The position numbers and the translations under genes were made by a program. Below the pieces are notes generated by a model. It ran no database searches. It was not told where the DNA came from and saw nothing but the letters and a program-made list of their open reading frames with translations. DNA of 64,000 bases from Nemertoderma westbladi (Eukaryota > Animalia > Xenacoelomorpha). The stretch lies in contig JAUCBJ010008826.1 in the NCBI GenBank assembly GCA_032718475.1, positions 1 to 64,000 of the forward strand, written 5' to 3'. This document shows positions 1 through 33,337 of the stretch, in pieces (the stretch's first letter is position 1; each line of letters begins with the position of its first letter).

Positions 1-163
1 TTACGGAGGACGATGGTCGTTATATCGAACCGCCGATGTCCCAGGAACAACTTACGCGTGAATTGGACTATAGAAAATTCACCGCTCGCTATACGAATCG
101 TAATGGTACGTATATGGACTTCTTAACTACCGGCCATCCTACCGATTTACATGATATGGAAAT

Positions 164-8147: not shown

Positions 8148-8935
8148 TATTGGGCAAGTGGCCTAATGGACAAATGGCCTATTGGGCAAGTGACCTAATG
8201 GACAAGTGGCCTATTGGGCAAGTGACCTAATGGACAAGTGGCCTATTGGGCAAGTGACCTAATGGACAAGTGGCCTATTGGGTAAGTTACCTAATGGACA
8301 AGTGGCCTATTGGGCAAGTGACCTATTGGGCAAGTGACCTATTAGGCAAGTGACCTAATGGACAAGTGGCCTATTGGGCAAGTGACCTAATGGACAAGTG
8401 GCCTATTGGGCAAGTGGCCTAATGGACAAGTGGCCTATTGGGCAAGTGACCTAATGGACAAGTGGCCTATTGGGCAAGTGACCTAATGGACAAGTGGCCT
8501 ATTGGGCAAGTGACCAAATGGACAAGTGGCCTATTGGGTAAGTTACCTAATGGACAAGTGGCCTATTGGGAAAGTGACCTAATGGACAAGTGGCCTATTG
8601 GGCAAGTGGCCTAATGGACAAGTGGCCTATTGGGCAAGTGACCTAATGGACAAGTGGCCTATTGGGCAAGTGGCCTAATGGACAAGTGGCCTATTGGGCA
8701 AGTGACCTAATGGACAAGTGGCCTATTGGGCAAGTGACCTAATGGACAAGTGGCCTATTGGGCAAGTGACCTAATGGACAAGTGGCCTATTGGGTAAGTT
8801 ACCTAATGGACAAGTGGCCTATTGGGAAAGTGACCTAATGGACAAGTGGCCTATTGGGAAAGTGACCTAATGGACAAGTGGCCTATTGGGCAAGTGACCT
8901 AATGGACAAGTGGCCTATTGGGCAAGTGGCATTGG
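8148..8935. repeat. Minisatellite of 16-bp monomers in a 32-bp dimer (TGGCCTATTGGGCAAG / TGACCTAATGGACAAG)
   Basis: Tandem array seen directly in the sequence. Confidence 0.95.
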
Positions 8936-9078
8936 GCGAGTGACAGTATACCAACATAACGGTCAGCACGAAATTGGTCAGTAGGTTGGGCAGTCTGTCG
9001 GGTGATTGATTGGGTTGGTTGGTCGATGGTTGTTCGCTCGGTTCTTACATTAATAAAGTCTACGACCTGCTACAATAC

Positions 9079-9177
9079 CTGCTGTTTGATTAATTTATCA
9101 GTTAAAAGTTCATTTTCTGCTTTCATCCGTGACATATCCTCATTCATATGTATCGTAACTTCAGTCAGATCATTTAA
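9079..9177 (-). CDS. Putative host-gene exon 3 (33 aa, coiled-coil-like: LNDLTEVTIHMNEDMSRMKAENELLTDKLIKQQ)
   Basis: Acceptor TTCTATTTTGCAG, donor CAG|GTATTG, 99 bp, open in phase 0. Confidence 0.6.
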
Positions 9178-9671
9178 CTGCAAAATAGAATGAAATAATA
9201 TTATAGATGATATTTTCAATATGATGATTGTATATGATGTAATTTACTCAAAGTTTAAAATAAATAATTGGGTAGTAGGAGTAGCAAGGAAACAAGATTG
9301 CATAATATATCCATCTACAGTAGATATAACTAGACCAATATGAATGCGCCTTTGCTTCGCCTTTGGTACTGAACTGGTATCTCAATGGTTATCAATGATA
9401 AAGTGTTGTTTCGGGTTAATTATACTTTGTTTTTTAGACATAATAAACACAATCTACTGATTATGTTATACTTATATTTGCACACTTATTATACATAAAC
9501 ATACGCCTATGACATCCTATTGTAAATTTTAATCTGTACTATGTAATTGTTAAATTTTAATTTGTATCTCTGAATGTCTTATACCGATTTTAATGTGTCA
9601 ATCTTGTGCACTTTTATTATACATTATGTATGTTCTTGTGCAATTTTATGTCAATTTTATTTGATTAAAAC

Positions 9672-10875
9672 AATGAAATGAAATGAAATGAAATGAAATG
9701 AAATGAAATGAAATGAAATGAAATGAAATGAAATGAAATGAAATGAAATGAAATGAAATGAAATGAAATGAAATGAAATGAAATGAAATGAAATGAAATG
9801 AAATGAAATGAAATGAAATGAAATGAAATGAAATGAAATGAAATGAAATGAAATGAAATGAAATGAAATGAAATGAAATGAAATGAAATGAAATGAAATG
9901 AAATGAAATGAAATGAAATGAAATGAAATGAAATGAAATGAAATGAAATGAAATGAAATGAAATGAAATGAAATGAAATGAAATGAAATGAAATGAAATG
10001 AAATGAAATGAAATGAAATGAAATGAAATGAAATGAAATGAAATGAAATGAAATGAAATGAAATGAAATGAAATGAAATGAAATGAAATGAAATGAAATG
10101 AAATGAAATGAAATGAAATGAAATGAAATGAAATGAAATGAAATGAAATGAAATGAAATGAAATGAAATGAAATGAAATGAAATGAAATGAAATGAAATG
10201 AAATGAAATGAAATGAAATGAAATGAAATGAAATGAAATGAAATGAAATGAAATGAAATGAAATGAAATGAAATGAAATGAAATGAAATGAAATGAAATG
10301 AAATGAAATGAAGTGAAGTGAAGTGAAATGAAATGAAATGAAATGAAATGAAATGAAATGAAATGAAATGAAATGAAATGAAATGAAATGAAATGAAATG
10401 AAATGAAATGAAATGAAATGAAATGAAATGAAATGAAATGAAATGAAATGAAATGAAATGAAATGAAATGAAATGAAATGAAATGAAATGAAATGAAATG
10501 AAATGAAATGAAATGAAATGAAATGAAATGAAATGAAATGAAATGAAATGAAATGAAATGAAATGAAATGAAATGAAATGAAATGAAATGAAATGAAATG
10601 AAATGAAATGAAATGAAATGAAATGAAATGAAATGAAATGAAATGAAATGAAATGAAATGAAATGAAATGAAATGAAATGAAATGAAATGAAATGAAATG
10701 AAATGAAATGAAATGAAATGAAATGAAATGAAATGAAATGAAATGAAATGAAATGAAATGAAATGAAATGAAATTAAATGAAATGAAATGAAATGAAATG
10801 AAATGAAATGAAATGAAATGAAATGAAATGAAATGAAATGAAATGAAATGAAATGAGATGAAATGAAATGAAATG
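9672..10875. repeat. (GAAAT)n pentanucleotide satellite, ~1.2 kb
   Basis: Near-perfect tandem array with rare GAAGT, TAAAT and GAGAT variants. Confidence 0.98.
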
Positions 10876-11387
10876 AGTTCTGACAAACATAATGGTAGAC
10901 CTTACCTAGCACCAGAAGCACTAGTGTCTTGGACTCGTTTTATCATATATATAATATTTATCTATAAATAATTTGATTCTATAAAAAACTGGACAAAATT
11001 GAAGCGTCCATAGAATTTGATCAATTGAATGAAATTCCACAGGGTAATTGAGGTTTTCAGACAAAAAAATTGGAAATTATAGTAGTGGTCAGCTTGTATA
11101 AGTAATACACCAACGTTATCAATCAATTTCCGAATGATATCTAAAATTCCACAATTGTAAAATTAAAAATTTTGAACATATGCTTGTTTAGAATATTCAT
11201 AGAATGTAATGGATAACCTTAACCATTGGAAAGCCAAAAAAGTTTTCCTTTACAAACAAGTCAATTTATATTGTCGTAATTTATTTTATTATGTATTTTA
11301 TTAATTGTTTATGGTATTGAGTAGGTCCATCTGTTGTTTAACTTATAGTTGTTGCACCTTAAATTAAAGAGCAATAATATTGACGAA

Positions 11388-13356
11388 CTACTACTACTAA
11401 GTCGAGCGAACTCGGACAGTGGAAATGAGATCCTTCCAGGCTTCCCGATTCTCCATAGTTGTCGCAATTTCGTTTCTCCCAAGTTCAGTATCCCTTTCAA
11501 GTTGATCTATATATGTTATGGCCGGTCGTCCACGACTACGCTTTCCATGAGTTGGTTGCCAGAGAAGTAGATCTGGTATGACCTCGTCTTTACTTCGCCA
11601 GCAGTGCCCACAGAATCTTAATCTGCGTTCCCGGAGGGTGGTTGATACAGGTGGTATTGTACCATAAAGCTCGGCGTTTGTCATGTGTTGTCTCCAGCTG
11701 ATGTTTAAGGCTGCCCTTAGTAGTCGTGTGTAGCAACCATCAATTCGTTGTTCAAGTGATTTAGTCAGTGTCCAGGTCTCACCCCCGTATAAAAATACAC
11801 TTTCCACTGATGCAATCCAACCTCCTTAGCAGCCCTCTCCACTTTATTTAGTAGAAGCTGTGCATCTGCTAGCGTATTAGAGAGCAGGGCGATGTCATCC
11901 GCAAAGTCGGTGTCTGTGACTGTAGTTGCCGGATTTCTACTACTTCTGCGTTCTTGAAGTGTGAATCCCAGATCTTCACTCTTTGTGGCCGTCCTCATTG
12001 CGTAATCCAGCACAATTACAAATAGTAATGGTGCTAATGTGTCACCTTGCAGTACGCCAGCCAGGATTGAGAAAAACTCAGTTTCACCATCTGGTGAGAG
12101 TACCTGCGCTTCTGTGTCACAATATAACAATCCAATGCCAGCAACAATTACTTCTGGTATTCCATAAGCTCTTAGGATTTCAAGCATTTTACCTCTATGG
12201 ATGGAGTCGAATGCCTTCTTGAAGTCCACAAAAGTCATGACTGCGGGGAGATTCTTTGACTTAATTCCTTCAATCATTCTCCGTAGTGCAAGTATCTGAG
12301 CTATTGTTGAACTACTGTGTCGAAATCCGTTTTGGCTCTTACGCAGTAGTTTCTCTATGTGAGGCCTAATCCTATATAGAATCATTTTATTGTATATTTT
12401 GGCAGCTACCACAAGCAGGCAGATCCCACGATAGTTTGTTGGTATGCTGAGGTCTCCTTTCTTGGGGAGAGGCTTTAGTTGACGTTTAGTCCAAATTGGT
12501 GGTGGCTTTTCCCCTTTTAACATCCGGTTGCAAACATTCAATAATGGTCTGTTTAGCACTCCGGTTTTCCATACCTCAGCTGGGATTTCATCTAATCCAC
12601 TCGCTTTATTATTGGACATGCTTTTAATGCTTCTTTGGAGTTCGGCAGGTGTGAAGTCCCCTGTTTCTATGTCAAATGTCAAATCTATGTTTCTGTTTCT
12701 ATGTTCCCATGTTTCTGTTCCCCTGTGTCTTGTCATATATTTTCCTTGTAGGGCTGACCTCGATGTTTGGTGGCTGCCCAAACAAGTTGCTGAAGTGTTT
12801 TTCCACTTCCCAACACGTTCTTCAGGATTATCGGCTTTGAGGCGCCTCTTTGCACAACTTTTCCGACCAGATACCTCATTTACAGTTTGTCAGGTAGGTC
12901 TTGATTGTTGCTGTATGTGAGCAGTTGTAATTGCTTCAGTTTTATCCTGTATGTACTTTTCCTGGCTGATGTTGTAGGCCAATTTAAGATCGTCCTTAGC
13001 TTTCTCAACCTTGTTAATGTTTTCGGTTGTTCGGTTTTAACTTTGTAGGCTATCTTAAGATCTTCTCTCTTACAAGTAACCTCAGAGTTTTGCCATGGCA
13101 CATACTGTTTTCGTTTGGGTTTCTGGGGGATATGCCTCTTAGCTGATTCCTTGTGGGCTGTTATTATATTCTGGTATATTGAATTGGTGGATTGGTCTTC
13201 ATCCATTGACTGAAGTGCTTCAAAGCGGTTTTGAACTTCTACTGTATAAGCATCCTTTACAGCATTGTCAGTTCTGAGTTTCTCCCAGTCATATTTGATT
13301 TGCTTGCTTGTCCTGGGTTTGCTGGCTCTCAAACTGAGTCTGATCTCTGCAGTCAC
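11388..13356 (-). mobile_element. 5'-truncated RTE-like LINE (RT), decayed
   Basis: RT motifs NYRGICL, QNGFR, FVDFKKAFDSIHR, GVLQGDTLAP and DFADD; C-terminal ESVFLYGGETW...LLWQP...RGRP; (TAG)n tail at 11388-11399; internal deletion near 11790. Confidence 0.92.
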
Positions 13357-13359
13357 AAT

Positions 13360-13482
13360 TCTGTATATACAGTACACTATGTACAGTATGTACGTACAGT
13401 ACAATATGTACAGTACAATATGTACAGTACAATATACAGTACAGTATGTAGACCTTATTACTACTATTTTAGTACTGTATAT
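13360..13482. repeat. Degenerate TACAG/TACAA-type microsatellite
   Basis: Repeated GTACAGTA / TACAATAT units. Confidence 0.6.
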
Positions 13483-13483
13483 A

Positions 13484-13725
13484 AATGGGAGAATCTTTTT
13501 AGACTCGTTAAGCCAAGGAATGCCTGTTCACCACATGGGTGATCTTCCACAGGAAACCCTTCCACTCCGTTTCCCAAGTTGCCTTGGTTCCCATTTATCG
13601 ACTACTGAAGATGAAAGCCGGGGTTGGGCTAGGCTGCAGCATATAAAGCACTGTGCCTTAACAGTGCTGTCCCAACTAGGGATCGAACCAGGGCTCCCTA
13701 ATTGAAAGCCCAGGAATGTCACCAA
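13484..13725 (-). mobile_element. tRNA-derived SINE
   Basis: B-box-like GGTTCGATCCC near the 5' end. A second copy lies on the + strand at ~43363-43566. Confidence 0.75.
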
Positions 13726-15560: not shown

Positions 15561-17201
15561 AAATTAAAGTCACGAAATTATTTTTTATCAATAGAGGTAA
15601 GTTTAACAGGGTAACATTCATGATAACAGGTAGTATCTCATTGTCACCTTTCGAGATTTCCAACTGGAGCTCGCCAGTTAGATCTCGCTTGGGGTGTCCG
15701 GATAATTGCAACCCGGGTCATTGGACCCATGATTTTAGATATACTGTATTTGTTGTATCGCAATTGTCCAGGTCGCAATTGTCCTACTGTAACTTCCACA
15801 CCTGGACGTCAACGCCGACTTTGCTACGAATAATACGTAGTGTACAGTATTGATAGTAGTAGAGTCTTGGGCGGCTCGGCGACAGTTAGACCCCACTCAT
15901 GACACATCGCTTAGGAATGTGACACCTATGGGTGTCATTGGCGCCAGAATGTCTGGGTGACACCTCCTAATTAGGCTAATAAAACCCAAATTTACAGGTG
16001 TCATCAATTAATTAATACACTTAATCCCTAATAGGTGTCTTACGACTCCTAATTAGGGTTTAATTGATTATACTAATTAATCAGACCGAATAGCGCCCTA
16101 ACACCCAATGGCTCATGAGTGTTGTCTAACTGTCACCTAGAGGCCCAAGAGGGTGTCATAAGTGACACCGCGGCTTTTTTATTTATTAATACTTATTTAT
16201 TTGTATTTAATTTTAATTTATTTAATTGTATTTATTTTTACTTTATTTATTTAATTTTAAATTAATTATTTATTTGTACTTTATTTTAAATTAATTAATT
16301 GTATTACTTTTACTTTATATATTGATTTCTATTTTAATATTAATTAGTTTTTATATTACTTACCGCTACTAAATGAGATCACTATGACATAATATCTATA
16401 TTTAGCTCTGTGGTATACAGCTCCTTACTGGCAACTATTTTGGAGTTAATGTTAGCAAAGGGCCTAAACTTAAGACAAGCTATCGCCTAGGTTACCAGTT
16501 ATGCATGAATGAGAAATTTATCAGGGCCCCTCTTAAAATTCTTTGTGCTGCGTCAGCAGCACAAGGAAGCTTAAGGAAGCTGCATCCCTATCGATAATCT
16601 AATTATGGTATCGCTAATCATTTTCAGTATACTGTATAATTAAATAGGGCCCTCAATTAATACATAAGTTTATATATACAGTTTATCTTCAATTTAATTT
16701 GTTTTTATTTACAACCCTAATTGTTCTACTGTATTATAATTTATGTTTTATAATAACAAGCTATATCCGGTTAATCTGTATTAATTTTCTTTGTACTGAG
16801 TTTATCGAGTGCGCTGTTTCCAATGGTCCTATTCTCAAAACGATCTAACCTACTGTATAATTAATTACTTAAGACTGCGATGTATGCGTAATTAACTAAT
16901 CTCGTTTACCAGTTTTCCTTAAAAACTTTGAAGCCATATTGCTTAAGAGTTCTAAGGGGCGAGTCATGAGGCAAGATGTTTGAGACTTATTTAGATATAT
17001 TATTACTTAATTTTGACCCCCCAGTCGGTATCTATTACAATATGGGCTATAACTTTTGTAGAGTCACAGAGTAGTCTGAAGTTCCCCAGTCTGCCGCTAG
17101 AGGGCGAAATGTCTCAAACTAAAAACCATATAGTAGCCATGAATTGGTTACTAGGCAATAATACTGCATTTTGCAAAGTTAGGCCTATTGCTGACCGAAT
17201 G

Positions 17202-17285
17202 AAAACTGCCCTGGTTCATGCGGGGATCGAACCCATGACATACGGGAGATGCGAATTCAACGTAACCACTACACCAAGGTGGAAC
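17202..17285 (-). ncRNA. tRNA-like Pol III cassette in the left TIR
   Basis: On the minus strand: A box TGGTGTAGTGG, B box GGTTCGATCC, then TTTT. No convincing cloverleaf. Confidence 0.45.
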
Positions 17286-17348
17286 CGTAACCTTCGAATT
17301 TGTTCGTTGCCGTTCGAATTTGTAAGACTCTCATTTAAGACCTGATAC

Positions 17349-17597
17349 AGACTATGCCTCACTGTGGCATAGACTATGCCTCACTGAGGTACAGAATATG
17401 TCTCACTGAGGCTCTGAGGCATAGTCTATGCCTCACTGGGGCACTGAGCCACAGACTATGCCTCACTGAGCCGCAGACTATGCCTCACTGAGGCATAGAC
17501 TATGCCTCACTGAGGTACTGAGGCATAGACTATACCTCACTGAGGCATCGACGACTATGCCTCACTATGGCATAGACTATGACTCACTGAGGCATAG
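17349..17597. repeat. Palindromic 22-bp minisatellite (GAC TATGCCTCA C TGAGGCATA) in the left TIR; resumes at 18784-18819
   Basis: Tandem array seen directly; the solo LTR is inserted in it. Confidence 0.9.
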
Positions 17598-18783
17598 TGT
17601 TCGCGCTTTCAGACCTTTAGCAGTTTAACCTGCCAAATTTGGATGTCTTCTAGATTATAAATCGACTTTAGCCTATGACGAGTATTTGTTACACTACATT
17701 AGCCGAAGCCAGTCTATGCGCGACCATTCACCCGCTGGATACACCCGGGAGACTGGATTCGGAAGCTTTGACCTTATTGCGGTGTAGGCCTACTGTATTA
17801 TTCGACTGATCGTTAATATATAATTTCTGACAAATATTATTCACTTTCGGGAAATATTAACAGTTCCTTTAGGACGTGGCGCTCTAAATATGTAAACAGA
17901 GTTATGACTTATACTAGACACAACGGGATAGCTATGGATTCACGTATAAAGCGCATTCTTTAGGAGATGCTTTGTTATCAGTCACAATCATGCACACTAC
18001 CGCACAATGCTGCACACCGATCTGCCGACCTTCACTAATTTTAGTCACATATAAAGAGAACAACAACCGACTCATGTAGTGCCTATGAAATAGCATTAGA
18101 TTCACTCCAAAACCACTTTAATGTAAGTCGCAATTATTGTATGTAACCGGTCTCTCACCTTCAGTATATCAAGAAGATTGGCGGTTTTATGATTATTCAC
18201 CGATATTATCCAAATATAATAATATTCCATCAACTGATATAATTAATAACCGACAGTAAATAGCAGTAAAAATGCGGTGTTTGTAGTTGACAATATGATT
18301 TGACACACTGACTTGTGATTAGTTTGTGTTGCGATAACAGTTATACGTTTCTATGACCAAAGCCTACTAATGTTTGGCTAAAGCCTGAAAACACAGAAAT
18401 TCCAAAGCCGGTCTTATGGGTGTGGACAAAATACACATACTGACTCAATTGCATGAGTTTCTGTATACAATCTCCAACACAGAGTGAAAACCGCTCTGAT
18501 TGGTCGACCGAACAAAGAACGAACAAAGAACAAAGAAAATGTTACATGTGTACATATCAGCTGTTAGATGTCGTCATGGTAACTACACTGTATCAAGAGG
18601 ATTTTGGCTTATTGCGACATAAGATCGCTAGTTATGTCCGCTAAAGTACACATACAGAAGAAATGGCTTTTTATGTCCACTAAAACACCGGTACAGTAAG
18701 GAAACGGCTTTTTATGTCCGTTAAAACACCTACAGAGCACTTTGCGGGAAAAATAACTAGCTAGATCCGCAAAAGCCTTTACA
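17598..18783 (-). mobile_element. Solo LTR of the BEL/Pao family
   Basis: Reverse complement of the LTR with TGT...ACA ends, flanked by the 5-bp TSD CATAG (17593-17597 / 18784-18788). Confidence 0.93.
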
Positions 18784-19495: not shown

Positions 19496-20355
19496 TATGA
19501 AAGGAACTCAAACAAACAAATGTCAATAGCGTCGTCCTGCGCGGGCATATACTGAACGAGAGTTTTTTTTATCATAGGTCTTCGAAAATAAGTAAAAGCT
19601 GGTTGATTTACTTTACTTTCATCTTCCTCATTACCCAACTGTTTCTTAATTTTATTCAATTGTTCATTAATATTCAGTAATTTACTTTTATTTCCCAGAA
19701 CCTGTCTTAATATCTCTTCTCTATTTTCTTCATTTTCTTCCATTTGTTTAATAAACTTCCGCATTTGATTTTTGTTTCCTAATATTTGTCTCAATATCTC
19801 TTCTTTATTTTCATCATTCTCTTCTAAATGTTTAATAAATTTCTGTAATTTAATTTTACTTCCTAGAACTTGGGTCAATGTCGCCTCTTTATTTTCTTCA
19901 TTTTCCTTCAAATGTTTAATAATTTTCCGCAATTGATTCTTATTTCCAAGTAATTGTCTCTTTATTTCCTCATTATCATCATTTTCATCCTCTTCTCCAC
20001 TTTCCTGATCTTCACTTTCTTCACCCTCTTTCTGACCTTCACTTTCTTCATCCTCTTTCCCACCTTCACTTTCTTCATCCTCTTCCCCACCTTCACTTTC
20101 TTCAGCCTCTTCCTGATCTTCATTTTCTTCACCCTCTTTCTGACCTTCACTTTCTTTATCCTCTTCCTCTTCTTCACTTCTTCATCCTCTACCTGTTCTT
20201 CACTTTCTTCATTCTCTTCCTGTCCTTCACTTTCTTCATCCTCTTCCTGATCTTCACTTTCTTCGTCCTCTTCCTGATCTTCACTTTCTTCGTTCTCAAC
20301 TTCACTCTCTTTAACTTCATCCTGACCCTCACTATTTACATTCTCCATCTCATCG
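19495..20355 (-). pseudogene. 3' part of the Polinton-like cargo gene: acidic (EESEDQEED)n tract followed by ~27-aa helical repeats
   Basis: ORFs 19962-20348 and 19495-19932 with a frameshift in the acidic tract. Three repeats of the type KFIKHLEENDENKEEILRQILGNK. Confidence 0.65.
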
Positions 20356-21522
20356 TGTAAAAGCTTTTGCGGAATTAGCCGGTTATTTTCCCCGTAAAGT
20401 ACTCTGTAGTTGGTTTAACAGGCATAAAAGGCCGTATCCTTACTGTACTGGTGTTTTAGTGGACATAAAAAGCCATTTCTTCTGTATGTGTACTTTAGCG
20501 GACATAATTAGCAATTCTATGACGCAAGGCGCTAGATCCTCTTGAAACAGTGTAGTTACTATGACGACAGCTAACAGCTGAGCTGTACACGTGTAGCTTT
20601 TTCCTTGTTCTCTGGTGTTTCTTTGTTCGGTCAACCAATCAGAGCGATTCTCCTGCTTTTTGTACAGAAACCTCCGGGAAATCGCGCAATGCATTATGGG
20701 TCAATGTTTACATTTTGTCCTGAGCCCAGAAGACCGGCTTTTGGAATCTCTGTGTTTTCAGTCTTTAGCCCAACATTAGTAGGCTTAATTATAGAACGTA
20801 TATCTGTTATCTCACTCACCTAATCATATTGTCAACTACAAACACCGCATTTTTACTGCTATTTACTGTCGGTTATTCATTATATCAGTTGATGGAATAT
20901 TATTATATTTGGAATACCGATAAATAATTACAAAACCCTCAATCTTCTTGATATACTGAATGTAAGAGAGACCGGTTACATATAACGATTGCGACTTACA
21001 TTAAAGTGGGTTTGAAGTGAATCTAATGCTATTTCATAGGCACTACATGTATTGGTTGTTGTTCTCTTTATATGTGACTAAAATTAGTGAAGGTCGGCAG
21101 ATCGGTGTGCAGCATTGTGCAGTATTGTGTATGATTGTGACTGATAACAAAGCATCTCCTAAAGAATGCGCCATATACGTGAATCTATAGCCATCCCGTT
21201 GTGTCTAGTTTAAGTCATAACTCTGTTTACATATTTAGAGCGCCACGTCCTAAAGGAACTGTTAATATTTCCCGAAAGTGAATAATATTTGTCAGAGATT
21301 ATATATTACGATCAATTGAATAATACAGTAGGCCTACACCGCAATACGGTTAGGCTTCCGAATCCAGTCTCCCGGGTATATCCAGCGGGTGAATGGTCGT
21401 GCATAGACTGGCTTCGGCTAATGTAGTGTATCAAATACTCGTCATAGGCTAAAGACGATTCATTATCTAGAAGACATCCCAATTTGGCAGGTTAAACTGC
21501 TAAAGGTCTAAAAGCGCGAACA
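20356..21522 (+). repeat. 5' LTR of copy 2
   Basis: TGTAAAAGC...GCGCGAACA, directly repeated at 33338-34503. Confidence 0.96.
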
Positions 21523-21536
21523 ATAACAGATATACG
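21523..21536 (+). promoter_or_regulatory. Non-tRNA primer-binding site complementary to an LTR-internal motif (putative self-priming PBS)
   Basis: ATAACAGATATACG immediately after the LTR is the exact reverse complement of CGTATATCTGTTAT at 20797-20810. It has no TGG start. Confidence 0.7.
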
Positions 21537-21805
21537 CTTCTTTATTGCAACGTAGGCAATAAAGCTGAAGTACCGGCCAACCGGTACCCAATAGGCCTGA
21601 CTACCTAACCACCCGGACCGGTACTTACAGCAGTACAGGTACAGCAGTATTATTTCGATTGTGATATTGTATACCGGTAGGCTGTTTAAGAGATTAGGGA
21701 CTGTACACCCCTTGTTTCTTTTGGAGCTTACTTATTTCTGTCAGGTTTTATTTATTTGTAGGTTAATATTGAGCAGAAGACGTGTAAGCCTGCTCAGATT
21801 ATACA

Positions 21806-22385
21806 GATAATTTGTAGGCTGGACTGTTGTCTGACTGTTGTTAAGTCTGAAGGGACTGTAGTGTGTGTAGAGTGTATGTCCGATAAAGTGCCAGTTGGGA
21901 ACGTAGGGGCTTCCAGTGCTGTGAGGTAAACCCCCTCGAAAGAATAAGTCGTACTACTCGGTTAGAACGCATACTAACTAACCATTTTGGAGTCTGCATA
22001 TACTGTAGTTTATTTAGGCTTGATAGTAGTCTGCCAGCGTTTGGTCTGTACTTTGTTTGTGTAGTCTGTACGGGTAGCGTAATATTTCTTATTTAGATAA
22101 TTTGTAGGCTGGATTGTTGTCTGGCTGTTGTTAGGTCTGAAGAAATTTCGGTGTGTGTAGAGTGTATGTCCGATAAAGTGCCAGTTGGGAACGTAGGGGC
22201 TTCCAGTGCTGTGAGGTAAACCCCCTCGAAAGAATAAGTCGTACTACTCGGTTAGAACGCATACTAACTAACCATTTCGGAGTCTGCATATACCGTAGTT
22301 TGTTTAGGCTTGATAGTAGTCTGTCAGTATTTGGTCTGCATTTTGTTTGAGTAGTCTGTACGCGTAGCGTAATATTTATTATTCA
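21806..22385 (+). repeat. ~289-bp direct tandem duplication in the 5' leader of copy 2
   Basis: The block starting AGATAATTTGTAGGCTGG occurs at ~21806 and ~22095. Confidence 0.9.
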
Positions 22386-24084
22386 GAGTTTATGCGATTA
22401 TTCGCAACATTCATATCCCCAAGTTTATTCCTACAGTAATTGTGCTTGTTATATATACCGTTATAGTTAAACTAACCCCGGTACTACATCAGGGCTGCTT
22501 GGCGTAGGTAAAGACTGGTGATTTTGTGCCCCGGTCACTCCAGCAGATACCGTGGTTCTTTTAGCTGTACAAGTATTTCTAACTACTGATTATTTGTTGT
22601 ATAAGTACTTGTACCTAATTTAGGGTTTAGTGTACAGTGCTTTCCGAGGGTAATTAGTGTGTAGGCAGTATAATTGTGTTGTAAAGTGGATAATAGGCAC
22701 GTTGATTCTGGTAGACCGCGGTAATTAACTTCTAGGTAGGAACACTCCGTGATACATAACGTAGTACTTATAGCGATACGGCTATAAGTCGTCAGACGGT
22801 GGTATTTTCCTATCTGGACAACGCAATATATTTACTACTGCTTGTTATTTTCAAATACCGTAGTACCCTGTCCGTTGTAATAACCAGATATTCTAACCCT
22901 TTGTTAGGCTGGTTTGCAGACTTCTTGTAAAATTACCCTAAAAATTCATACGTGTAATTTTTGTGTTTATTTAGAGATTGTAATCTCACCCCGAATTGTA
23001 TGTAATTTGTAGTATTAAGTAACTTAGGTAAATTAGAATTATTTGTTTTAGTGTCCAACAAGTAGCACTTCACTGATAGCGCACAGCTTCTGTGTAGTGA
23101 CTCCTTCCCAGAAATAATAACATTTATTTCAAATATTGACAAAACCCATTATACGGGTATATATATATTATAAATCAACTCAAACCGATTTATAAATAGT
23201 AGGCCTGCCATACAACAATTAGGTCTCAATATCAGTTGGACTACTGCTCAAATAACGGTAATAAAGTAAGTTAAAGTAACCAAGTAACCCCTAAAATTCA
23301 GAAATTCAATAATTCTAAAATAATTGATATACCGGTATTTATAATAGGCTTATTATATTTATTTCTATAAATTTAGGCTGAAATTATACCGGTATTCTGT
23401 AATTAATTCTAGTCTGTAATTATACTTATATATATACATTATAAGTATAAGCTGTATACCGGTATTCACGATAGGCCTATTATATATATTTATATATTTG
23501 TGCTAAAATTATATACTGGTATTCTGTGACAAACCTAGTCTGTAATAATACTTATATATATACTATAAGCATACCGGTATTCTAATATATTATATATATA
23601 TATCACGCTACACTGAGTAGCAGTATCGGTAATTAATTACTAGGCTAACAGTTGATACTGAATTACTAGACTTGCTTTAACTGTAATATAGCAGTAGGCA
23701 TTCAACTGTACAAACAAACATGTCTGACACAAAGCAAAACCTGTCAGACAGCCTCCTAGATACAACCATCTGTGACCAAGAGCGGACGTCCGAGAATGGC
23801 TTCAGTTTTGACCTTCTTGATAAATATTTCTTTCAAAATTGTGATATCAATCTAAACAACTTGAGAATTCTAAGCATTTTGAGCTAAATAAATGAACTCT
23901 AAATATTCACTAGCACCAAATTGCCCACCCACCCTGTACAGCTGTAACAACGTTCTGGAACAAATAAATCATAATCTAAACATGTAGCCCCGGTGGTCTT
24001 CTAATCGTTCCTAAAAATAATTGGTAGATTCGAATTCGCATTGTACAATTAAACATTTCGGAAATAAACGTTTCGGATTATTTA

Positions 24085-24690
24085 CTTAAATAGTTAAATT
24101 TATAAACTTTTTAATTATAAATAAATTAGTTATAAATAAAATCAAAATTTTATTCCACCGATGGGCTACGTGGATGATTATCTACAACTTTGAGTTTCAT
24201 CATTTTCCCGTAGGACCTATAGTTTTCTTAAATAGCGAAATTTATTACCTTTTTAATTATAAATATATTAGTTATAAATAAAGTCAACATTTTATTCCCC
24301 CGATGGGCTACGCGGATGATTATCTACAACTTTGAATTTCATCATTTTCCCGTAGGACCTATAGTTTTCTTAAATAGCGAAATTTATTACCTTTTTAATT
24401 ATAAATATATTAGTTATAAATAAAGTCAACATTTTATTCCCCCGATGGGCTATGCGGATGATTATCTACAACTTTGAATTTCATCATTTTCCCGTAGGAC
24501 CTATAGTTTTCTTAAATAGCGAAATTTATTACCTTTTTAATTATAAATATATTAGTTATAAATAAAGTCAACATTTTATTCCCCCGATGGGCTACGCGGA
24601 TGATTATCTACAACTTTGAATTTCATCACTTTCCCGTAGGACCTATAGTTTTCTTAAATAGCGAAATTTATTACCTTTTTAATTATAATA
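24085..24690. repeat. ~138-bp tandem repeat (~4.5 copies) in the leader of copy 2
   Basis: Repeated CCGATGGGCTACGCGGATGATTATCTACAACTTTG...CCCGTAGGACCTATAG. Confidence 0.92.
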
Positions 24691-25238
24691 TTAGTAATAA
24701 ATTGATCAATTTACTTGAAATTTGGTACACGTATTTCTGGTACCCCCCCTTCATATTGTGTGCAAATTAAAAAAAAAATCGTATCTGCAGTTCCTGAGAT
24801 CGACTGATTTTGGACTAGAGTGTACATATATACTGCTTTGCCACTACCATTATAATTCGCATCATTTACCCACTACTGATTAGCCCCATTCAATAGATTA
24901 ACTGTAAACATTGTTCATATAGTGGATATGTGTATTGCTGGGCAGACTGGCTATAGTATAACATCCGTCATTAAACAACCCCAGTAGTCAGACACTGTGG
25001 TTATCATTAAATCAAATTGTCTATAAATAGTACACATTAGATGGCGGCCATATTACTACTGAGATAACGGCATACTAGCAGCTCTACCTACCTACTGTGG
25101 TTGCCAAGCCAACTCTGAATTAATTCTACCAGCGAACTGCCTTGGTGCTCTTCCCAATCAGATATCGGCAAGATTTATTTCTAATAGTTTTAATTAATTT
25201 TTAATAACTTTAAAACATTCTCACTCGGCCCCTAATTT

Positions 25239-26852
25239 ATGAATTTGGGACGGCGCTTTATCTTGGTAGCTACTGCGCCGGTTTTCTTGCAGGGAAAGGG
25301 CCCTCTCCACCCAGACAGGAGTGTGGAACGTGTGAGACCGAAGTTCAACTCACCTCCTACTGTAAGAAAGATCATCCCTCCAGTAGTAATATCAGACCCT
25401 AGGCTAGTCCAACATCGTAGGTCTATCATAGGCACTCGAGCTCAGGTCAAGCGAGACCAAGAAGCAGCGGAACAGCAGCAACACTCGAGCCGAGAACTTA
25501 TTTCGCAGCGGCCCGACAGCTCCAGTAGTGAGGATACTGTAGAGCTGACACCCGAGCACGGAGCAAAGATGACAGATGCGGTTTATTCGGATCCCCTTCT
25601 CATCCTTCCTGCAGCCGTACTCACTAGGGTATTGATTGCGGTGGAGGAACACCAGATTGATTGGGCGAGAAGTAAGCGATCGACTAAGGATAGTTATGCG
25701 GGATACACAAGGGAAGAACTGAAGTCTATTGTCGAGTCGCAATGGAACTTCCCCGGACCCAGACTCCCGCTTGACTTATCGGAAGCTGCCTGGGAAGACA
25801 TACACAGGATGGGAGTAACCAAGGAAACCATCGATCCAGCTGTGTGGAAGAGGTCCGCAGCAGGATACGTACAGGGATTCTTCAGCTCCATGGAGCGATT
25901 AGAGGAACAATTGTTTAGACAACCACAAGGACCTCAAGAGCAGGGAGAGCTGCTTTATCAAGTTCGAGAAAGAATTCTAAGAATCAGACTAATCCTATCG
26001 GCCTTTGAGGAGGCTTCGAAAAGAAAACAAGGCACGTCGTTGCAAGTTGCCGTAAAGACTTGGTTTCAGCGAGTGAGTCTCAAAGTTCAAGGAACTGCCC
26101 AGTGGAAATCTCAGCTGGCTGAGCGCTCAACTCATGGAGAATCAACAGACGCTACCTTTTCCCAAGTGGAAAGCGAAGCGACAGCAGAGAAACCGCATAA
26201 GAGGGATGCTATTGACATCTATCTGTCAGACTATCAACGCTTTGTAGGTGATGAAGAGTTGAGGAGAAGGCTGGAGGGACTTAGCCCTAATAGTGAAGGA
26301 GCCAAGCTTGTGTTGGACGCAATCGATGCGGATATGAGAGCTGCGAACCAAGCTAAATTTGATGAACGCCTCCACATCACTAGAGTCCAAGAAGAACAAG
26401 TAAAGAAAAAACGTATAGAAGTCAGAAAGACAGCGGCAGTGGCAGCAGCAGTGGCAGCGGCAGAAGCGGAAAGAAAAGCGACAGCGGCAGCGGCAGAGGT
26501 AGAAGCGGAAAGAAAGGCGGTAGAAATGGAAAGAAAAGCGGCGGCGGCGGCAGCGGCAGCGGCAGAGGCAGAAGCGGAAAGAAAGGCGGTAGAAGTGGAA
26601 AGAAAAGCGGCAGTGGCAGCGGCCGAAGCGGAAAGAAAGGCGGCAGTGGCAGCGGCAGAGGCAGTGGCAGAAGCAGAAAGGAGAGCGTCTGAAGAAACCA
26701 CCCAACTAGAATTGGAAAACATTCAGGAGAATCAAGACTGCATAAATAAACAGTTAACAGCTAGTCAAATGCAGATGATGGGTGGATCAACTCCCAAAAG
26801 ACAGGGATATACATCATCTGAGGAAGGCGATACCACCGATCTTGAAGGCTGA
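25239..26852 (+). CDS. Long N-terminal Gag extension with Ala/Glu/Lys (EAERKAA)n coiled coil
   Basis: 537-aa ORF directly upstream of gag. Copy 3 reads openly through the region homologous to ~26900-27050, suggesting an originally continuous ORF. Confidence 0.65.
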   Translation: MNLGRRFILVATAPVFLQGKGPLHPDRSVERVRPKFNSPPTVRKIIPPVVISDPRLVQHRRSIIGTRAQVKRDQEAAEQQQHSSRELISQRPDSSSSEDTVELTPEHGAKMTDAVYSDPLLILPAAVLTRVLIAVEEHQIDWARSKRSTKDSYAGYTREELKSIVESQWNFPGPRLPLDLSEAAWEDIHRMGVTKETIDPAVWKRSAAGYVQGFFSSMERLEEQLFRQPQGPQEQGELLYQVRERILRIRLILSAFEEASKRKQGTSLQVAVKTWFQRVSLKVQGTAQWKSQLAERSTHGESTDATFSQVESEATAEKPHKRDAIDIYLSDYQRFVGDEELRRRLEGLSPNSEGAKLVLDAIDADMRAANQAKFDERLHITRVQEEQVKKKRIEVRKTAAVAAAVAAAEAERKATAAAAEVEAERKAVEMERKAAAAAAAAAEAEAERKAVEVERKAAVAAAEAERKAAVAAAEAVAEAERRASEETTQLELENIQENQDCINKQLTASQMQMMGGSTPKRQGYTSSEEGDTTDLEG

Positions 26853-27048
26853 GGAAATAGATCTCGTCTAAGCAGACGTAGAAGAATGTCCCACCGTCAG
26901 AAATTGCCTGATTTGCACCCAGCTGTTAGAAGGCAACTAACTAACACAAATTTAGGTAGTACAGAACCCACAGACCAAATAATTAACATAGAAAGACATA
27001 GTAGATGAGCCCGAAATAATTAGGCCTGTTCTCGAAGCCACCCCTTCG

Positions 27049-30000
27049 GTGATAGAGACACCTGTACTCCCTGAACCTATCTCTAAATTCCCCCTGCACA
27101 GCATTAAGCTACCTGTGCCCAGCAGAACAGCCCATGAGACAGTTCATGTCCTGGACTCCGAGCGAAATATTAATGATTTGTCGCCCATTGTCCCTCGTCC
27201 GCCCGCTACAACGTTGGCGACTCCCGCTTCGGCGGTCGAGTGGGTGGATGAGAGACGGCGGGGGATGGATCTCCTGCTCGGGCAGATGCAGGAGACTGTT
27301 AAGCAGTTCAAGGGCACAGTAAGGGAAAGTAGGTTAGAGTTGCAAGAAGTGCAGCAAAGTATCGCGTTAGAACGCGATAAATTAGTAAATACACAAAAGG
27401 GTATACCACCACCCCCTGTAACAATGTGTCAACCTGTTAGGTCTGAAGTATTTCATGCGCAAGGTGTGGAGCCTACATGCATCTATACTGCTAGCGAAGT
27501 GGAAACTCCTATAGTAAACCCTATTAAGGGTAATTATAAACCTGTTGACAATGATATTCCATATAGACTTGATAATAATCCGAGAAATTTATATACCGAT
27601 AACTCGATATTAAATAACACGATGGCCCAAGAAAGTTTTACGCGTCAAATGGCTAGAACCGAAGCCCGTCAAGCGGTAAAGATGGGAGAGATCGTCAAGT
27701 TCAATGGAGATGAGATGAAATGGTTACCTTTTAATGAATATTACAAAGATAACATACAGAACTCTGTGCTATCTAACGGAGAGAAACTTAGATTCCTCAT
27801 CGAGTGCTTGGAAGGATCTCCCAAGTTAATGGCGTTAAAGTTTATTGGACATCCCGATGGATTAAGACAAGTTTGGGATACCCTAAACATCAGGTATGGT
27901 AATAGGAATAACATAGCTAGGTATTTATATGCAAAATTGGTAGCGCCCCGAAAGTTCATTAGCAGCGGGATAATAGAGTTTTCCGATGAGATTCAAGAGA
28001 TCTGTAGACAATTAGATTGGCTAGGTAAGTCTCATGAATATCAGAGTTCTATGGTTATTGGAGCTGTGGCTTCTACCTTACCGAAGGGTGGAGTAGGTAC
28101 ACGCTGGGATAAGAAAGTGTTATATATGATGGAACAGCAACGACGAGACCCTACCATGGCTGATCTCATGTCATTCTTAGATGGAGAAGTGAAATTACAG
28201 CTCCTAAAGCAGTCCAGAGAGAAGACACCGGAAAACAAGGTAAGTGAGAAACCCGTTTCTAGGAGAAAGGTAACCCCAGTGTGTTATACCGACGACGGCG
28301 AAAGCCAGGCTTCTCAAGGAGAGGACAGCGGGAAAGACACTGAAAGATCTTATTATGTCAATAAAACGCCTAAAGAACAGGTAAGTAAATTCAAGTCTCG
28401 AACCAAAGACAGGAGAGAACAGGTAAGAAAAACTCCTCCTACTTCTCCTAAGAGAATTCAGGTAAGAAAGCCCGAAGAAAGAACGAGTGTGCACAATGTT
28501 ATTCAAAATAAGGTAAGTAACATCAAACCGAAATGTGTGCTATGTGACGGGACCCATCGTTTGAATATGTGTGATGAATTCCTAAAGAAATCATTAACGG
28601 AGAGACGGGAAGTCATGTGGGATAAGCGGTTGTGTTATAATTGCCTCAGACAAGGACACCAACGGCGAACCTGTTACTCCGACACAAGGTGTGCAAAGTG
28701 CGGTGCGAAACATCATATCTTGTTGCACACTGAATTCGAACGAAACAGCCCGAGTCAGGTAAGTGATTCCGAACTACATGTCCAATTCAGTGATGTGAAC
28801 GACACTGACCAAAGTTCTGAGATGGAAGGATTCTATACGGATGAATTCTCCGACGAAGATGAATCCTGTTACATGATAAATACCGCAGTGTATCGAGCAC
28901 TTACGTATGAAAAAGACACAGACAGCGAGCTCACCCTAACTACTTCTGATCGACAACCATCTTGGAAAGCACTAACTTCCAATGTAGGAATCTGAGAATT
29001 TCCTGTAGTACAGTTAAGGGTCCACGGACCTAAGAGGAGTTATATAGTGAACGCCCTCCTTGACTCCGGTAGCACAGGAACATTCATCGACAAAGAACTA
29101 GCCGAAGACATCTTTGCTGGACAACACAAGTTCCGAACTAAGCTAAACATGTCAGGAATTATGCAGGTTTGGAAATCTACAGTAATAGCGGATTATTATG
29201 TAGGTGCGTTGTCCACCCCCCAGGATGAACTAGGAGAACACAGCATAAGGTCAGTAAAAATGGTGGCGATAAAGAACTTCGCTACCAGCCAAGTAGAACC
29301 TTATAACTGGGATGAGGACGATTTCACCCAGCAGTTTGATATACCTAGATTCAACACCGATTACCCTGGAGTGCAAATACTCATCGGTCAAAATGCGCAC
29401 GAGGCGCTCGAGACATTGGAGAAACGGCCTGCTCAACCGCAACCACTACAAGCTTATGCGGGAAGAACTAGAGTGGGTTGGTACTTTACTGGCCCTTCCC
29501 GTAGAACTCTCATGGAAAGATTACCGAAAGATCAGGTATATCAAGTAAGAGAATGGGAAGCGGAGAGCAGTGAGGTAGACGACCCAACTGAGGGAACACC
29601 ATACTCCTCAGATAATGACGATATTAACTCCAATGTAGATCAATGGAGACATTGCCCCAAGACGATTAATCTGGCCGACATCGCTTCCAGAGGAGCAACT
29701 CCTCAAGAACTGACAGATACTCCAGACAGGTTAGGTGGACCCGATTTCCTAAGTAGAGAAGATGAATGGCCTCCTCATCTTACCACGGCTGAGATTAGAC
29801 AAGCCAAGGGAGCGGAGAAAGTCAAACCTAAAACCCGGACGAGTAAATCAAGGTTATTTAAACCCGTGATAGATCTGTCTGTACTACACATTGCCAGGGA
29901 CGACGCTGTGGATCTAAACTCCCCCACCACGAACCGATCTGTTGTGGAGATCAGAGAGAGAGACTGGAGATCTGGAACACCAGACGTCTCGCCGGGACTC

Positions 30001-30273
30001 TCACCTCTCCTGCCGGGAGCGATGGACCACTATAGATCCTGGAATCGGCTTTGTAAGGCCGTCGTGTATTTGAAGCGATGTTTCTATCGTCACTATTCCA
30101 GGACGAAGAGGAAACCTGGAATTGTCTTCGAGATACAGCAGCTCAATCGCCCAGTTGGTCGTTTATGTTTACTGGAAAGAGACCGAGAACTGTCCGGAAA
30201 CTATGGAAGGCAAGATACTCTTCCCACGACCACCTCCCTAATCCAACAAACATCTAGGGACTCCCCAACGTAA
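27049..30273 (+). pseudogene. BEL/Pao gag + aspartic protease + fused pol remnants
   Basis: KFNGDEMKWLPF...EKLRFLIECLEG (DUF1759-like); triple knuckle CVLCDGTH..C, CYNCLRQGH..C, CAKCGAKHHILLH; LLDSGS. Stop at 28993. Deletions near 29625 and 30110 keep the frame open. Confidence 0.9.
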
Positions 30274-31902
30274 CATCGTCTGGAGTGGGTGTGTGACTAT
30301 ATTATTTTATATTCTTATTATTTTATATTTATGTATGTATTATTATGTAATTTTATTATAATCATTTTCTTTAATTTTATTTAGTAGAATGTTATTTTAG
30401 CGATTATTTAGTAGATTAGTGCAATATATATTAGTGTTTATTACTTAATTACTTATATATTATATATTTACAGCGACGGCGAGAAATAATTCTTTTTCTC
30501 TTTCCTTACTGTCCGTGTTACATTACAAATACGTAACTACAGTAAGATGAAATATCCGTACTTATTAAAGTACAATAAAGCCACTACTATATTCAAGTAT
30601 TATTGGTAGGCAGAGTATTAGGAATGCAAAGTTCAGATCCTCGTGTCTCGGCTAAACCAAGCTCTGGGTAGACCTTGGAAACGACTTGCCTCTTCACACT
30701 GACATTGCTTCGTGCGATATTGCTCTTCTACTTTATATTAAATAATACATATAGTAGCGTGATGTCCCTCTAACAGTAGCGTGAAACGCAAATAAATCTG
30801 TTAAACCTTTTGACCATCTGTAATTCTAGTCGATTAAGATATCGCGGCACCCACCGATATACTTGAAAGACAAATTCTAGAATCAGTGGTTAACGTCCCC
30901 AGACAAGTTCTGGAATAAACTGGTGCCCATCCTAAATATTAATTATTAATATTTACAAAATCTGTCAAATTTTAGATCCTTTAAAATTCTAGTCTATTAA
31001 GATATCGTAGCACTTACCGATATTCTTAAAAAGACCAATTTCCTAGAATCAAGGATCCTAGTCCCCAGACATGTTCTGGAATAAAATTGTGTCTATTTAA
31101 TATTAAATAATAAAATTTACGGGAATAAATTTAAATTCATATTTTAATGAATTTGATAAATTGTCATTTTTATGCAATTTATAACATTCCCAAAATTCCA
31201 TAAATTAATAGATCATGGGAGCGGAGATTCACCCTATTAAGTATATTAGTGTGCGAGAATCTCCAATATGTAGTCAATAGCCGATAAAATTCATAAAATC
31301 ATGTATAGAGAGGATATTGACCATTAAAGAATTACTATTAAATAGCATCCCAGATCTGTATGCATGAGAATTACCCTAATTCTACCGCTAGCTTTCCATA
31401 ATGTCACCATGGCAACAACCACGCTAGAATTAGAAGTGAGTCCAAAGAACAATAAAGCTTGCCCATTGAATAGCATAAGGAATAAAATAGCACACTACTA
31501 GTATCCCAGGATACCCAATAATAACGTGGCATTCTGGAAGGCACTGACTAATGGACAAATGGCCCGAATGTGTGCGATTTGTGACAGTTGTGTGGATTTT
31601 GTGCGTTTATAGGTGAATGTTACTACTAAAGTGTGTTTACAGTAGCGAGTCGCAATTGTGAAAGTAGCCCTAACTCTCCAGTAAGAACCTGAAGTAAATC
31701 TAAGCCTTTGGGACGGACGGTGGAGTGACTCGCGCTGGTTGTTGTAGTCGTTGTGCAGCTACGACGTTGGCGATAGGCACATCGGCGAAAGTACACCAGC
31801 GCTGAGGATCTTGCGCTGTCCGGGGGCTGAGAGGGGTAGGCAGCGACGCTCGCTAGCCTAAATATAAACTCATTATAATATTGATAAACTCATATAGCAG
31901 AT

Positions 31903-33259
31903 ATGACTGAGTTGATAGAAGATGATCTTGGTATCAGGGAGCGATATACTCTACCTTTACAAACGTTTGTTGATAGCTTGATATGCGGCGACGCTGGTCC
32001 AACTACTACAGAGGACGATGGTCGTTATATCGAACCGCCAATGTCCCAGGAGCAACTTACGCGTGAATTGGACTATAGAAACTTCACCGCTCGCTATACG
32101 CATCGTAATGGTATGCATATGGACTTCTTAACTACTGGTCATCCTATCGATTTACACGATATGGACGATGTCGACACCGAAAGGGAAATGGTACTGTTTG
32201 AGTATCCTACCCAGCGGAGTCGGAATGATAAACTGAAAATCGAATGCGAAAATTCTATTCGAAATCGACTCGAAAGAGAAGACATTAAAGAACCGGATAA
32301 ACGCGGTAACTCCAACGTATATTTGGAATTCTTGAGAGAAACATTGTAAAACCGAATAAATATCACCCGCGTTTCCCCTACAAGATGTGCGTCTTTGGTA
32401 TTATTGCAATGAATGCCCAAGACCCAACCAACAAACGGAAAGACATAAACATCCGTAGAGACGTTGCTTTAAACACGGTTACTCGCTATATTTACGGGAG
32501 TTTCGAGCGAAACTTGTTCGATGTATCACCTACGCTCGCTCGATTCAAACAATCCTTAAATAAACCTATGATCAGAGTTCCGGAATACTCGGTCAGACCT
32601 CCTCATTCCCTAGTTAGACCTCAGACTCTTGATCCTAATAGTATCATGGATCCTCCCGAACTGTACTCACTGTTCAAAGATCTAGTGCTACCCGAACAGT
32701 TAGTCGGTGGCACTCCGGTTGTGGGCTCCCTAAATATTCGCCCATCTTACCTAGTCGGATTGGGACGCGGACATCTAATATCGTCATTCAACCGTATCAT
32801 CGTCCCTGTTTAACCCGATACAACCTGTCACCGAAGCGGAGGAAAGAGTTGTACGAAACGCGTTGGACACTATTCGTCAAAAGATCGGAAAATGAACCTA
32901 CAATTGTTTAGAGAAACGTAAATTGCAGCAGCAAGTCCAAGCAGTAAACGAATTAATTTTATCTCAGTTCGATCAGGAAATTCAGAATCTCTAAGAAGAT
33001 ATCGAACTTGGACGACCCTATTCTCTGCAAGAGTTTTGGACAAACGCATCCAACGATAAGCAGAGGAAAATCAGCTCGAGGAGAAGCATATCGAAATGGA
33101 CGAGACATCGACCGTAACCCTAAACCTTCAGATGCAATTGTATTGCACCCTTTACCCAGGAGTTATAGCCCTCCTAGTAAAGTGGCTCGCCCCAAAGAGA
33201 AAAGGACTCTTGCTAGCCTCAAAAAACTGCGTAAACGCCGTCCGCGTAAGAAAGACTAA
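31903..33259 (+). pseudogene. Deleted remnant of the extra ORF in copy 2
   Basis: Same start (MTELIEDDLGIRERY) and end (KKLRKRRPRKKD) as copy 3. Deletions near 32345 and 33108 remove the exonuclease and knuckle region. Confidence 0.88.
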
Positions 33260-33337
33260 CTGTTTAGAGTATTTTTATATTTTAGAAACTGTGATTTTTT
33301 ATATTTTATAGACTTAAATCCCATTTTCTGGGAGCGG

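Follow-up and report, generated by a model that had tools for sequence, protein, structure and literature searches.

Background

To our knowledge, priming of reverse transcription by an element's own RNA has been proven only for Tf1, and has been proposed for the Tf1 group and a few plant lineages. In Tf1 and Tf2 of Schizosaccharomyces pombe, in Tj1, in Tosmo and in the Tf1/sushi group there is no tRNA site; the bases after the LTR complement a primer stretch of the LTR that is freed by cleavage (excerpts of PMC10085805, PMC5341516 and PMC4600332). The earlier note on this DNA placed self-priming in the Tf1/sushi chromoviruses. The idea has also been put forward outside them: an excerpt of PMC6317226 lists, besides Tf1/sushi, the plant lineages Tcn1 (gypsy) and TAR, Houba and Osr-1 (Copia), and offers a sequence criterion, namely at least 10 bp of complementarity starting 0-5 bp after the LTR. 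For the BEL/Pao elements, the ICTV description of Belpaoviridae names tRNA-Arg or tRNA-Gly as the primer, with a site of 18 nt, and puts genome length at 4.2-10 kb (PMC8742986).

The literature that we searched, which lies mostly outside subscription journals, Repbase Reports and GyDB, holds no precedent for self-priming in a BEL element, as the earlier note had supposed. It is unmentioned in the excerpts of PMC554778, PMC3118150, PMC8220671 and PMC2774666, and likewise in those of PMC6238403, PMC3601003, PMC6934838 and PMC5443660.

Here we describe a BEL/Pao family in a 64,000-nucleotide stretch of Nemertoderma westbladi DNA (the window). In our opinion its best explanation, to which we give a probability of about 0.75, is that the element primes reverse transcription with RNA of its own LTR, in the manner of Tf1, and not with a tRNA. 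The site after the 5' LTR is complementary to a segment of the LTR, as in Tf1/sushi (14 of 14 bases, offset 0), and it falls within the criterion used for plant Tcn1 and TAR. The likeness ends there in several respects. The Tf1/sushi elements are Ty3/gypsy chromoviruses, unlike this one; the candidate primer lies about 710 nt from its site and has a co-varying internal decoy; and in the relatives of the element the primer spans a splice junction. Tcn1, TAR, Houba and Osr-1 belong to other superfamilies and hosts, and the excerpted text describes neither a decoy nor a splice-junction primer for them.

The element

One LTR family is represented in the window by three copies and one solo LTR (Table 1). 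Copy 2 is flanked by a 5-bp target duplication, CATCG, at 20351-20355 and 34504-34508, and its two LTRs are 98.8% alike; it has lost RT, most of RNase H and the integrase core, and the element is now 14.1 kb long. The 5' ends of copies 1 and 3 lie outside the window. In the host the family has a high copy number, with 11,735 contigs of run X1 matching LTR and leader.

Table 1. Coordinates of the features discussed, in window positions
Feature	Positions	Strand	Remarks
Extra ORF, C-terminal part, copy 1	155-2425	+	Candidate DEDDy exonuclease-like domain and CCHC knuckles
LTR E (3' LTR, copy 1)	2504-3723	+	Divergent subfamily; motif variant at 2945-2959
LTR C (solo LTR)	17598-18783	-	Target duplication CTATG; motif variant at 18334-18347
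Copy 2	20356-34503	+	Both LTRs present
LTR A (5' LTR, copy 2)	20356-21522	+	1167 bp, TGT...ACA
Upstream arm	20781-20795	+	Predicted to pair with 21184-21192 and lengthen the decoy helix; in five LTRs, with different letters
Candidate self-primer (motif)	20797-20810	+	Exact reverse complement of 21523-21536
Splice-donor-like site	20962-20967	+	Putative; AG/GT-purine-AGA in LTRs B-D, GTTAGA in E, T before GT in A
Internal anti-primer (decoy)	21143-21180	+	21143-21149 and 21173-21180 form a split copy of the primer site
Small hairpin splitting the decoy halves	21152-21169	+	Predicted fold
Hairpin near the LTR end	21483-21504	+	Invariant in five LTRs; acceptor-like AG/GTTA at 21489-21494
Candidate primer-binding site, lacking TGG	21523-21536	+	Directly after the 5' LTR
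9-bp hairpin	21540-21564	+	Adjoins the primer-binding site
Gag-protease region, copy 2	25236-30273	+	In pieces; DUF1759, zinc knuckles
Extra ORF, copy 2	31888-33259	+	After the integrase region
Polypurine tract	33330-33337	+	Directly before LTR B
LTR B (3' LTR, copy 2)	33338-34503	+	Motif at 33779-33792
LTR D (3' LTR, copy 3)	49910-51062	-	Motif variant at 50657-50670
Extra ORF, copy 3	51483-55409	-	About 1300 codons counted across stops
Pol, copy 3	57236-60990	-	RT with YMDD, Pao RNase H, integrase; stops and frameshifts

The earlier assignment of the family to BEL/Pao is borne out by its Pao-type gag and RT/RNase H domains. Pfam matches include DUF1759 (E 1.7e-11), Peptidase_A17 (E 8e-22) and Integrase_H2C2, and the pol order, read from the ORFs of copy 3, is PR-RT-RH-IN between LTRs that come with a polypurine tract and a target duplication, as expected of BEL/Pao. 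There are 340 RT relatives at E<=1e-30, and PF05380 occurs in 119 of the 120 matches listed; among those same 120 of 340 the nearest RTs are 38-48% alike, the named ones coming from cnidarians, fishes, echinoderms and a priapulid. The Pfam matches contain no chromodomain, and the element does not fall in the Ty3/gypsy chromovirus lineage.

The element is thus a member of BEL/Pao (Belpaoviridae), filed there on its proteins. It agrees with the ICTV description of the family (Semotivirus) in the order of Pao-type gag, RT/RNase H and integrase, in an LTR of about 1.2 kb, in the polypurine tract and in the 5-bp target duplication. It departs from that description in its primer site, which is not a tRNA site, in the length of even the deleted copy, and in having an additional ORF, for which our searches showed no likeness to env. 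The leader (21523-25236) is very long, 3.7 kb before gag, and has tandem repeats of 290 and 142 nt as well as several strong hairpins directly after the primer site.

The primer site and its match in the LTR

The earlier note described a perfect 14-nt reverse complementarity between 21523-21536 and 20797-20810, and we find it in every coordinate. The LTR ends ...AACA at 21522, and 20810 pairs with the first base after it, so that the 3' end of the would-be primer abuts the LTR end. No TGG follows the 5' LTR directly. In the predicted fold the helix is extended by 4 bp over one bulge, with 20793-20796 pairing with 21538-21541 and 21537 bulged.

Such a match is not what the composition of the LTR would produce. 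From its dinucleotide make-up, 1.9e-5 exact matches are expected in the LTR by chance; none of 60 shuffled LTRs reached 14 nt, the best giving 9; and a comparison of the LTR with the 300 nt that follow shows no other inverted match of 9 nt or more. The possibility that we see a chance match, or a recent local inverted duplication without function, could draw on there being a single primer site in the window, in a copy without RT, but it is already largely refuted by this expectation, by matched variants in independent contigs and by the same design in unrelated letters in the relatives (below), and we regard it as scarcely credible.

The motif is also kept, identical at 33779-33792, with one base different at 18334-18347 and 50657-50670, and as a core at 2947-2958. 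Taken by itself this retention is no proof of selection on the primer site, since another stretch of the LTR, unnoticed in the earlier note, can pair with the motif and varies together with it (see below), which also explains the conservation. The site of copy 2 fits its own LTR variant best, as the note had observed: 14 of 14 bases pair, at -16.9 kcal/mol, against 13 of 14 and -12.2 kcal/mol with the variants of LTRs C and D, and a still poorer -10.9 kcal/mol with that of E. The window holds only this one primer site, the remaining LTRs being 3' or solo LTRs. A reading of the motif as a TATA box was considered and rejected, since it would not explain matching variants at the site. A search of 20300-22500 against Rfam gave a single chance match (snR75, E 3) and no known ribozyme or RNA family, and there is no tRNA gene within the window.

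Variants of the site in public contigs

Contigs of four runs, at least 80% alike, were matched to 21490-21560, and substitutions present at 1% or more were tabulated. Three substitutions are listed across this interval, and all of them fall inside the site. The first, 21530 A>T, is the compensatory base that the earlier note had predicted for another copy. It occurs in 21 contigs of X1, 14 of X3 and 1 of X5, at about 20-25% of summed depth (which is not copy number), and it restores the pair with LTR variants C, D and E, the contig variants being unphased with those of the LTRs. The second, 21523 A>T (15 and 17 contigs; 4-6% of summed depth), restores the pair with variant E; the two-base insertion of E at 21509 has a like share, 2-4% of depth. 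With the third, 21527 C>T, seen in 22 and 12 contigs (7%), the position can still pair as G-U. No substitution is listed for the hairpin 21483-21504 in the contigs covering 21490-21560.

Just after 21534 the cover in X1 falls from 56,940 to 3,046, about 19-fold, and indels are clustered at 21534-21537; conservation therefore ends where the pairing ends. Among the loose ends listed, those at 21522 agree poorly with one another (0.41-0.52), as would be expected if they were the unrelated flanks of 3' and solo LTRs.

Each round of replication of a self-primed element copies the site anew from the primer, and hence a match between site and motif is to be expected. Selection on an RNA helix would also give such a match.

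BEL/Pao relatives

About half of a collection of metagenome contigs was searched with an RT alignment; it gave 551 relatives, and the best 80 of them led to 79 loci. Upstream sequence was present at 55 loci, and in 9 of these a first scan showed that the site could pair, for 11 nt or more, with a GT-AG junction in the LTR; 0 of 165 shuffles did so. After one locus, L072, had been inspected by eye, the scan was widened from offset 4 to offset 6 and the 3' LTR was added as a source; it then gave 15 of 57 loci pairing over 11-15 nt across GT-AG junctions in the LTR, against 0 of 162 shuffles. Eleven of these 15 come from the 5' region, the part that the shuffle control mimics; in the other four (L035, L047, L049 and L068) the source is the 3' LTR, and there the second copy of the LTR defines its end. 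The remaining loci of the 57, many of which are short of a full LTR, gave no spliced match.

The 15 loci represent 10 families with different letters, and each site matches its own LTR; L037/L040 and L006 add two further families, with 11 and 10 nt. Written by family, the loci whose site pairs solely across a canonical LTR intron are L005, L018, L035/L036, L037/L040, L043/L063, L047, L049/L050/L064, L053, L066/L068, L070 and L072. Their donors are GTAAGT, GTGAGT or GTACGT (the scan took only donor-like sites as donors), the acceptors follow pyrimidine tracts, and the introns measure 66-426 nt. The junction divides the paired stretch into 4-8 plus 4-9 nt, and the helix ends within 0-5 nt of the LTR boundary in all 15. 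A poly(A) signal follows the acceptor by 17-86 nt in each of the four junction loci examined. In the separate tabulation of the junctions between LTR end and primer site, the row of L052 was excluded as lying in coding sequence, which leaves 17 of 18 rows.

Contiguous pairing occurs as well. L076, in which a second copy defines where the LTR ends, pairs over 11 nt (0 of 200 shuffles), and matches of 11-12 nt are found in L022, L029, L065, L060 and L008, the LTR ends of which are not fixed. Contiguous matches in L012 and L018 were rejected as lying in gag, L018 later giving a spliced match, and so was one in L047, in gag and 2.7 kb from the RT. In the RT tree the spliced and contiguous forms are interleaved. 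Contiguous matches appear in kin of spliced-primer families (L022 beside L037; L076; L029 and L065), and L022 and L037 have the last seven primer bases in common, which suggests that LTR introns have been lost or gained. As a separate observation, L039/L040 is a head-to-tail tandem array of a 6138-nt element in which single LTRs are shared.

The earlier note suggested that self-priming may have evolved independently in this family. We hold this to be unlikely. RT relatives that are 38-46% alike carry the same signature, mostly across a splice junction, and TGG is found in the first 8 bases at 0 of their 17 usable LTR-end junctions. Self-priming stands as the best reading, but the trait is likely to be old and clade-wide and not an invention of the window family. 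The RT of the window forms a long branch outside all 79 unlabelled relatives, and such a branch makes its placement unsure. An exact-pattern scan of metagenome contigs for the LTR end of the window family gave 0 matches, and a pattern scan of viral contigs gave 82 pattern matches and no relative.

The transcription start near 20793-20797 that the earlier note put forward is a prediction. In the relatives 130-370 nt of LTR precede the paired stretch, and a primer may therefore come from some way inside the transcript and not from its extreme 5' end. A cut a few bases into exon 2 may leave the intron to be copied from the unspliced 3' LTR; alternatively, a short spliced RNA may prime in trans.

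A second partner of the motif inside the LTR

Leader folding indicates that the motif 20797-20810 can instead pair inside the LTR, with 21143-21149 and 21173-21180. This decoy helix is predicted in all five LTRs and is recovered by RNAalifold, with 108 of 110 cells paired. Two of its pairs are changed on both sides, 20803:21173 in C, D and E and 20797:21179 in E. Among 500 shuffles, 5 reached the paired share, 13 the covariation score and 134 the number of changed pairs. Given these counts and the kinship of the five LTRs, the co-variation, with its two changed pairs, is suggestive and not proof. With that reservation, a second, split and co-varying partner of the primer motif inside the LTR appears to be the new feature here.

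The change of LTR E at 20810 breaks the decoy helix (A-G) but is matched by the variant at 21523; therefore the site follows the motif in its own right.

The decoy and primer helices are mutually exclusive and, in predicted folds, close in energy. Which of them forms is predicted to depend on the 5' end of the RNA. The primer helix has a probability of 0.96-1.0 for 5' ends from 20765 to 20797 and of 0 for ends at or before 20761, while the decoy helix has a probability of 1.0 for 5' ends at 20757 and 20761, and also in the 3' LTR. When either fold is forced, the decoy is favoured by 6.1 kcal/mol at 5' end 20757 and the primer helix by 1.6-2.1 kcal/mol at 20781 and 20793, differences that are within the error of an 800-nt fold. 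As such a fold is unreliable at differences of this size, it is the co-variation, not the energy, that we take as evidence that both helices are used.

Eleven relatives were examined for a stretch 45-77 nt ahead of the LTR end that could pair with the primer segment; in 5 of them at most 10 of 200 shuffles did better, and the other 6 did not stand out from the shuffles. The count of five may be too low, since the duplex test misses split partners (the decoy of the window scored 157 of 200 in it). Near-copies of the primer site in the LTR ends of L036, L053, L005, L066 and L037 could act as decoys.

Alternative explanations

Is the LTR of the window spliced, as those of some relatives seem to be? 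A form of our reading, which takes a share of its probability and which we hold to be unlikely, is that self-priming is gated by splicing, the primer becoming available, or being reassembled, solely in RNA that has been spliced. In one version the intron is 20806-21490, and its removal would recreate 13 paired bases at the joint, in the manner of the relatives; in the other the intron begins at the 20962 donor and takes the decoy out. Both candidate introns contain the decoy. The first, of 685 nt, would begin with the GT at 20806 and end with the AG at 21489-21490, and its junction would pair over 4+9 nt at offset 1 (0 of 60 shuffles), a split resembling the 4-8 plus 4-9 nt of the relatives; in L072 exon 2 starts with GTTAT and pairs with the ATAAC core, as it would in the window; and the donor-like site at 20962 is kept in LTRs B-E. 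On the other hand, the donor at 20806 reads GTTAT or GTTAA and not one of the three donors found in all 15 relatives, with the reminder that no other kind of donor was accepted in the scan. The pyrimidine tract of the acceptor is poor, and the acceptor is part of the hairpin near the LTR end, which itself explains its invariance. Moreover, unspliced RNA already pairs at 14 of 14 bases, and neither AATAAA nor ATTAAA, needed for strand transfer from a 28-nt strong-stop DNA, occurs after 21490. Stronger acceptors at 21744 and 21761, downstream of the site, could serve the 20962 donor, the better of the two, in making an mRNA without the site. The joints of run X5 include neither 20805-21491 nor 20961-21491; this run is only guessed to be RNA, with a small share, and speaks neither way.

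It is less probable still, in our opinion, that the helix acts at long range as a switch in the RNA, controlling translation, packaging or the formation of dimers, and that priming is by a protein, a nick or an unrecognised RNA. A motif with two mutually exclusive partners does bear the mark of a switch, and an internal partner recurs in 5 of the 11 relatives examined for it. Against this, a primer has to end at the LTR boundary, and that is where the helix stops in the window element and, to within 0-5 nt, in 15 relatives; nor is any other primer site visible.

The site could also bind a host RNA, such as an internal tRNA fragment or a small RNA, its match with the LTR being a by-product or a mimic. 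Half-tRNA primers of Copia elements (excerpt of PMC6317226) and the tRNA priming that ICTV gives for the family (PMC8742986) lend this some plausibility. But within a single species 3 of the 14 positions of the site are variable, and they change together with the LTR variants; across at least 10 related families the site is different each time and fits the LTR of its own family. No host RNA of fixed sequence can keep up with such variation, and we consider the idea very improbable.

Proposed mechanism and implications

Self-priming by LTR RNA draws its support from the complementarity, the register with the LTR end, the missing TGG, the matched variants, the second partner and the signature in relatives. 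At the level of sequence this signature is real and well supported; the mechanism of priming is a prediction.

By analogy with Tf1, transcription would start upstream of 20797, and the 5' segment of the RNA would fold onto 21523-21536. The RNA would then be cut just 3' of 20810, probably by the RNase H of the element, to leave a 3'-OH, from which the RT would copy about 710 nt back to 20811 before jumping to the 3' LTR. The two 'pretzel' side helices of Tf1 are not predicted around the window site, bases 20811-20829 being predicted to pair with 21129-21144 and not with sequences beside the site; the cut may for that reason be set up differently from that in Tf1. With less assurance, we suggest that the decoy serves as the alternative partner, which would mask the motif of the 3' LTR and also that of any RNA whose 5' end is longer. 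The motif might then be free only in a 5' end short enough to have lost the upstream arms, and priming might be gated by an RNA switch.

If self-priming is correct, tRNA-free priming would have arisen independently, or survived, in a third superfamily of LTR elements. It would explain why many aquatic BEL elements come out of annotation pipelines without a primer site, and tRNA fragments could no longer control a self-priming BEL branch. Together, the co-varying decoy and the candidate primers across splice junctions in the relatives make the question of how and when the 3'-OH forms directly testable.

A broader proposal is one that we advance tentatively and would sooner bet against than for: a large marine branch of BEL/Pao may have dropped tRNA priming for a gated self-primer, which in most families would be assembled when the host splices out an LTR intron and in the window family would be continuous but held by the anti-primer until start-site choice or splicing releases it, with a captured exonuclease-like ORF that could help to finish the primer end. 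Should the gated reading be true, RNA processing would license reverse transcription, a kind of control that is not known from LTR elements.

The extra ORF and other observations

The ORF that follows the integrase has no homologs in the searches run, and no Pfam or PDB match apart from a weak CCHC. For residues 35-290 of the copy 1 part, ESM language-model features lie near those of DEDDy 3'-5' exonucleases (0.92; 25 of 30 matches are PF01612), the shared features numbering 160, below the 170 typical of true DEDDy members. The CCHC knuckles after this region are a weak match, and a single-sequence fold is unusable (pLDDT 30). By eye, the first two of what we take to be the DEDDy motifs are recognisable and the third is incomplete. 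As a lead only, there is a likeness to the Juno and Vesta LTR elements of bdelloid rotifers, which have a DEDDy exonuclease ORF3 after pol but belong to other LTR lineages (excerpt of PMC5408684). That the ORF acts in processing the primer is a speculative idea. The stretch that separates it from pol, 30273-31888, comprises about 1.6 kb without a long ORF and with a 163-nt internal repeat; it may hold a promoter or a splice acceptor for the extra ORF.

Other repeats are present in the window. The protease region of copy 3 contains a 381-nt tandem duplication (60851-61887). Two decayed non-LTR retroelements, with endonuclease and RT matches, lie at 4451-6866 and 11765-13527 and are separated by 10-nt and 16/32-nt tandem arrays at about 8000-10900. 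A second repeat, with 22-nt minisatellite ends, is present in two inverted copies at 15849-17597 and 35299-37840, and solo LTR C sits in one of them.
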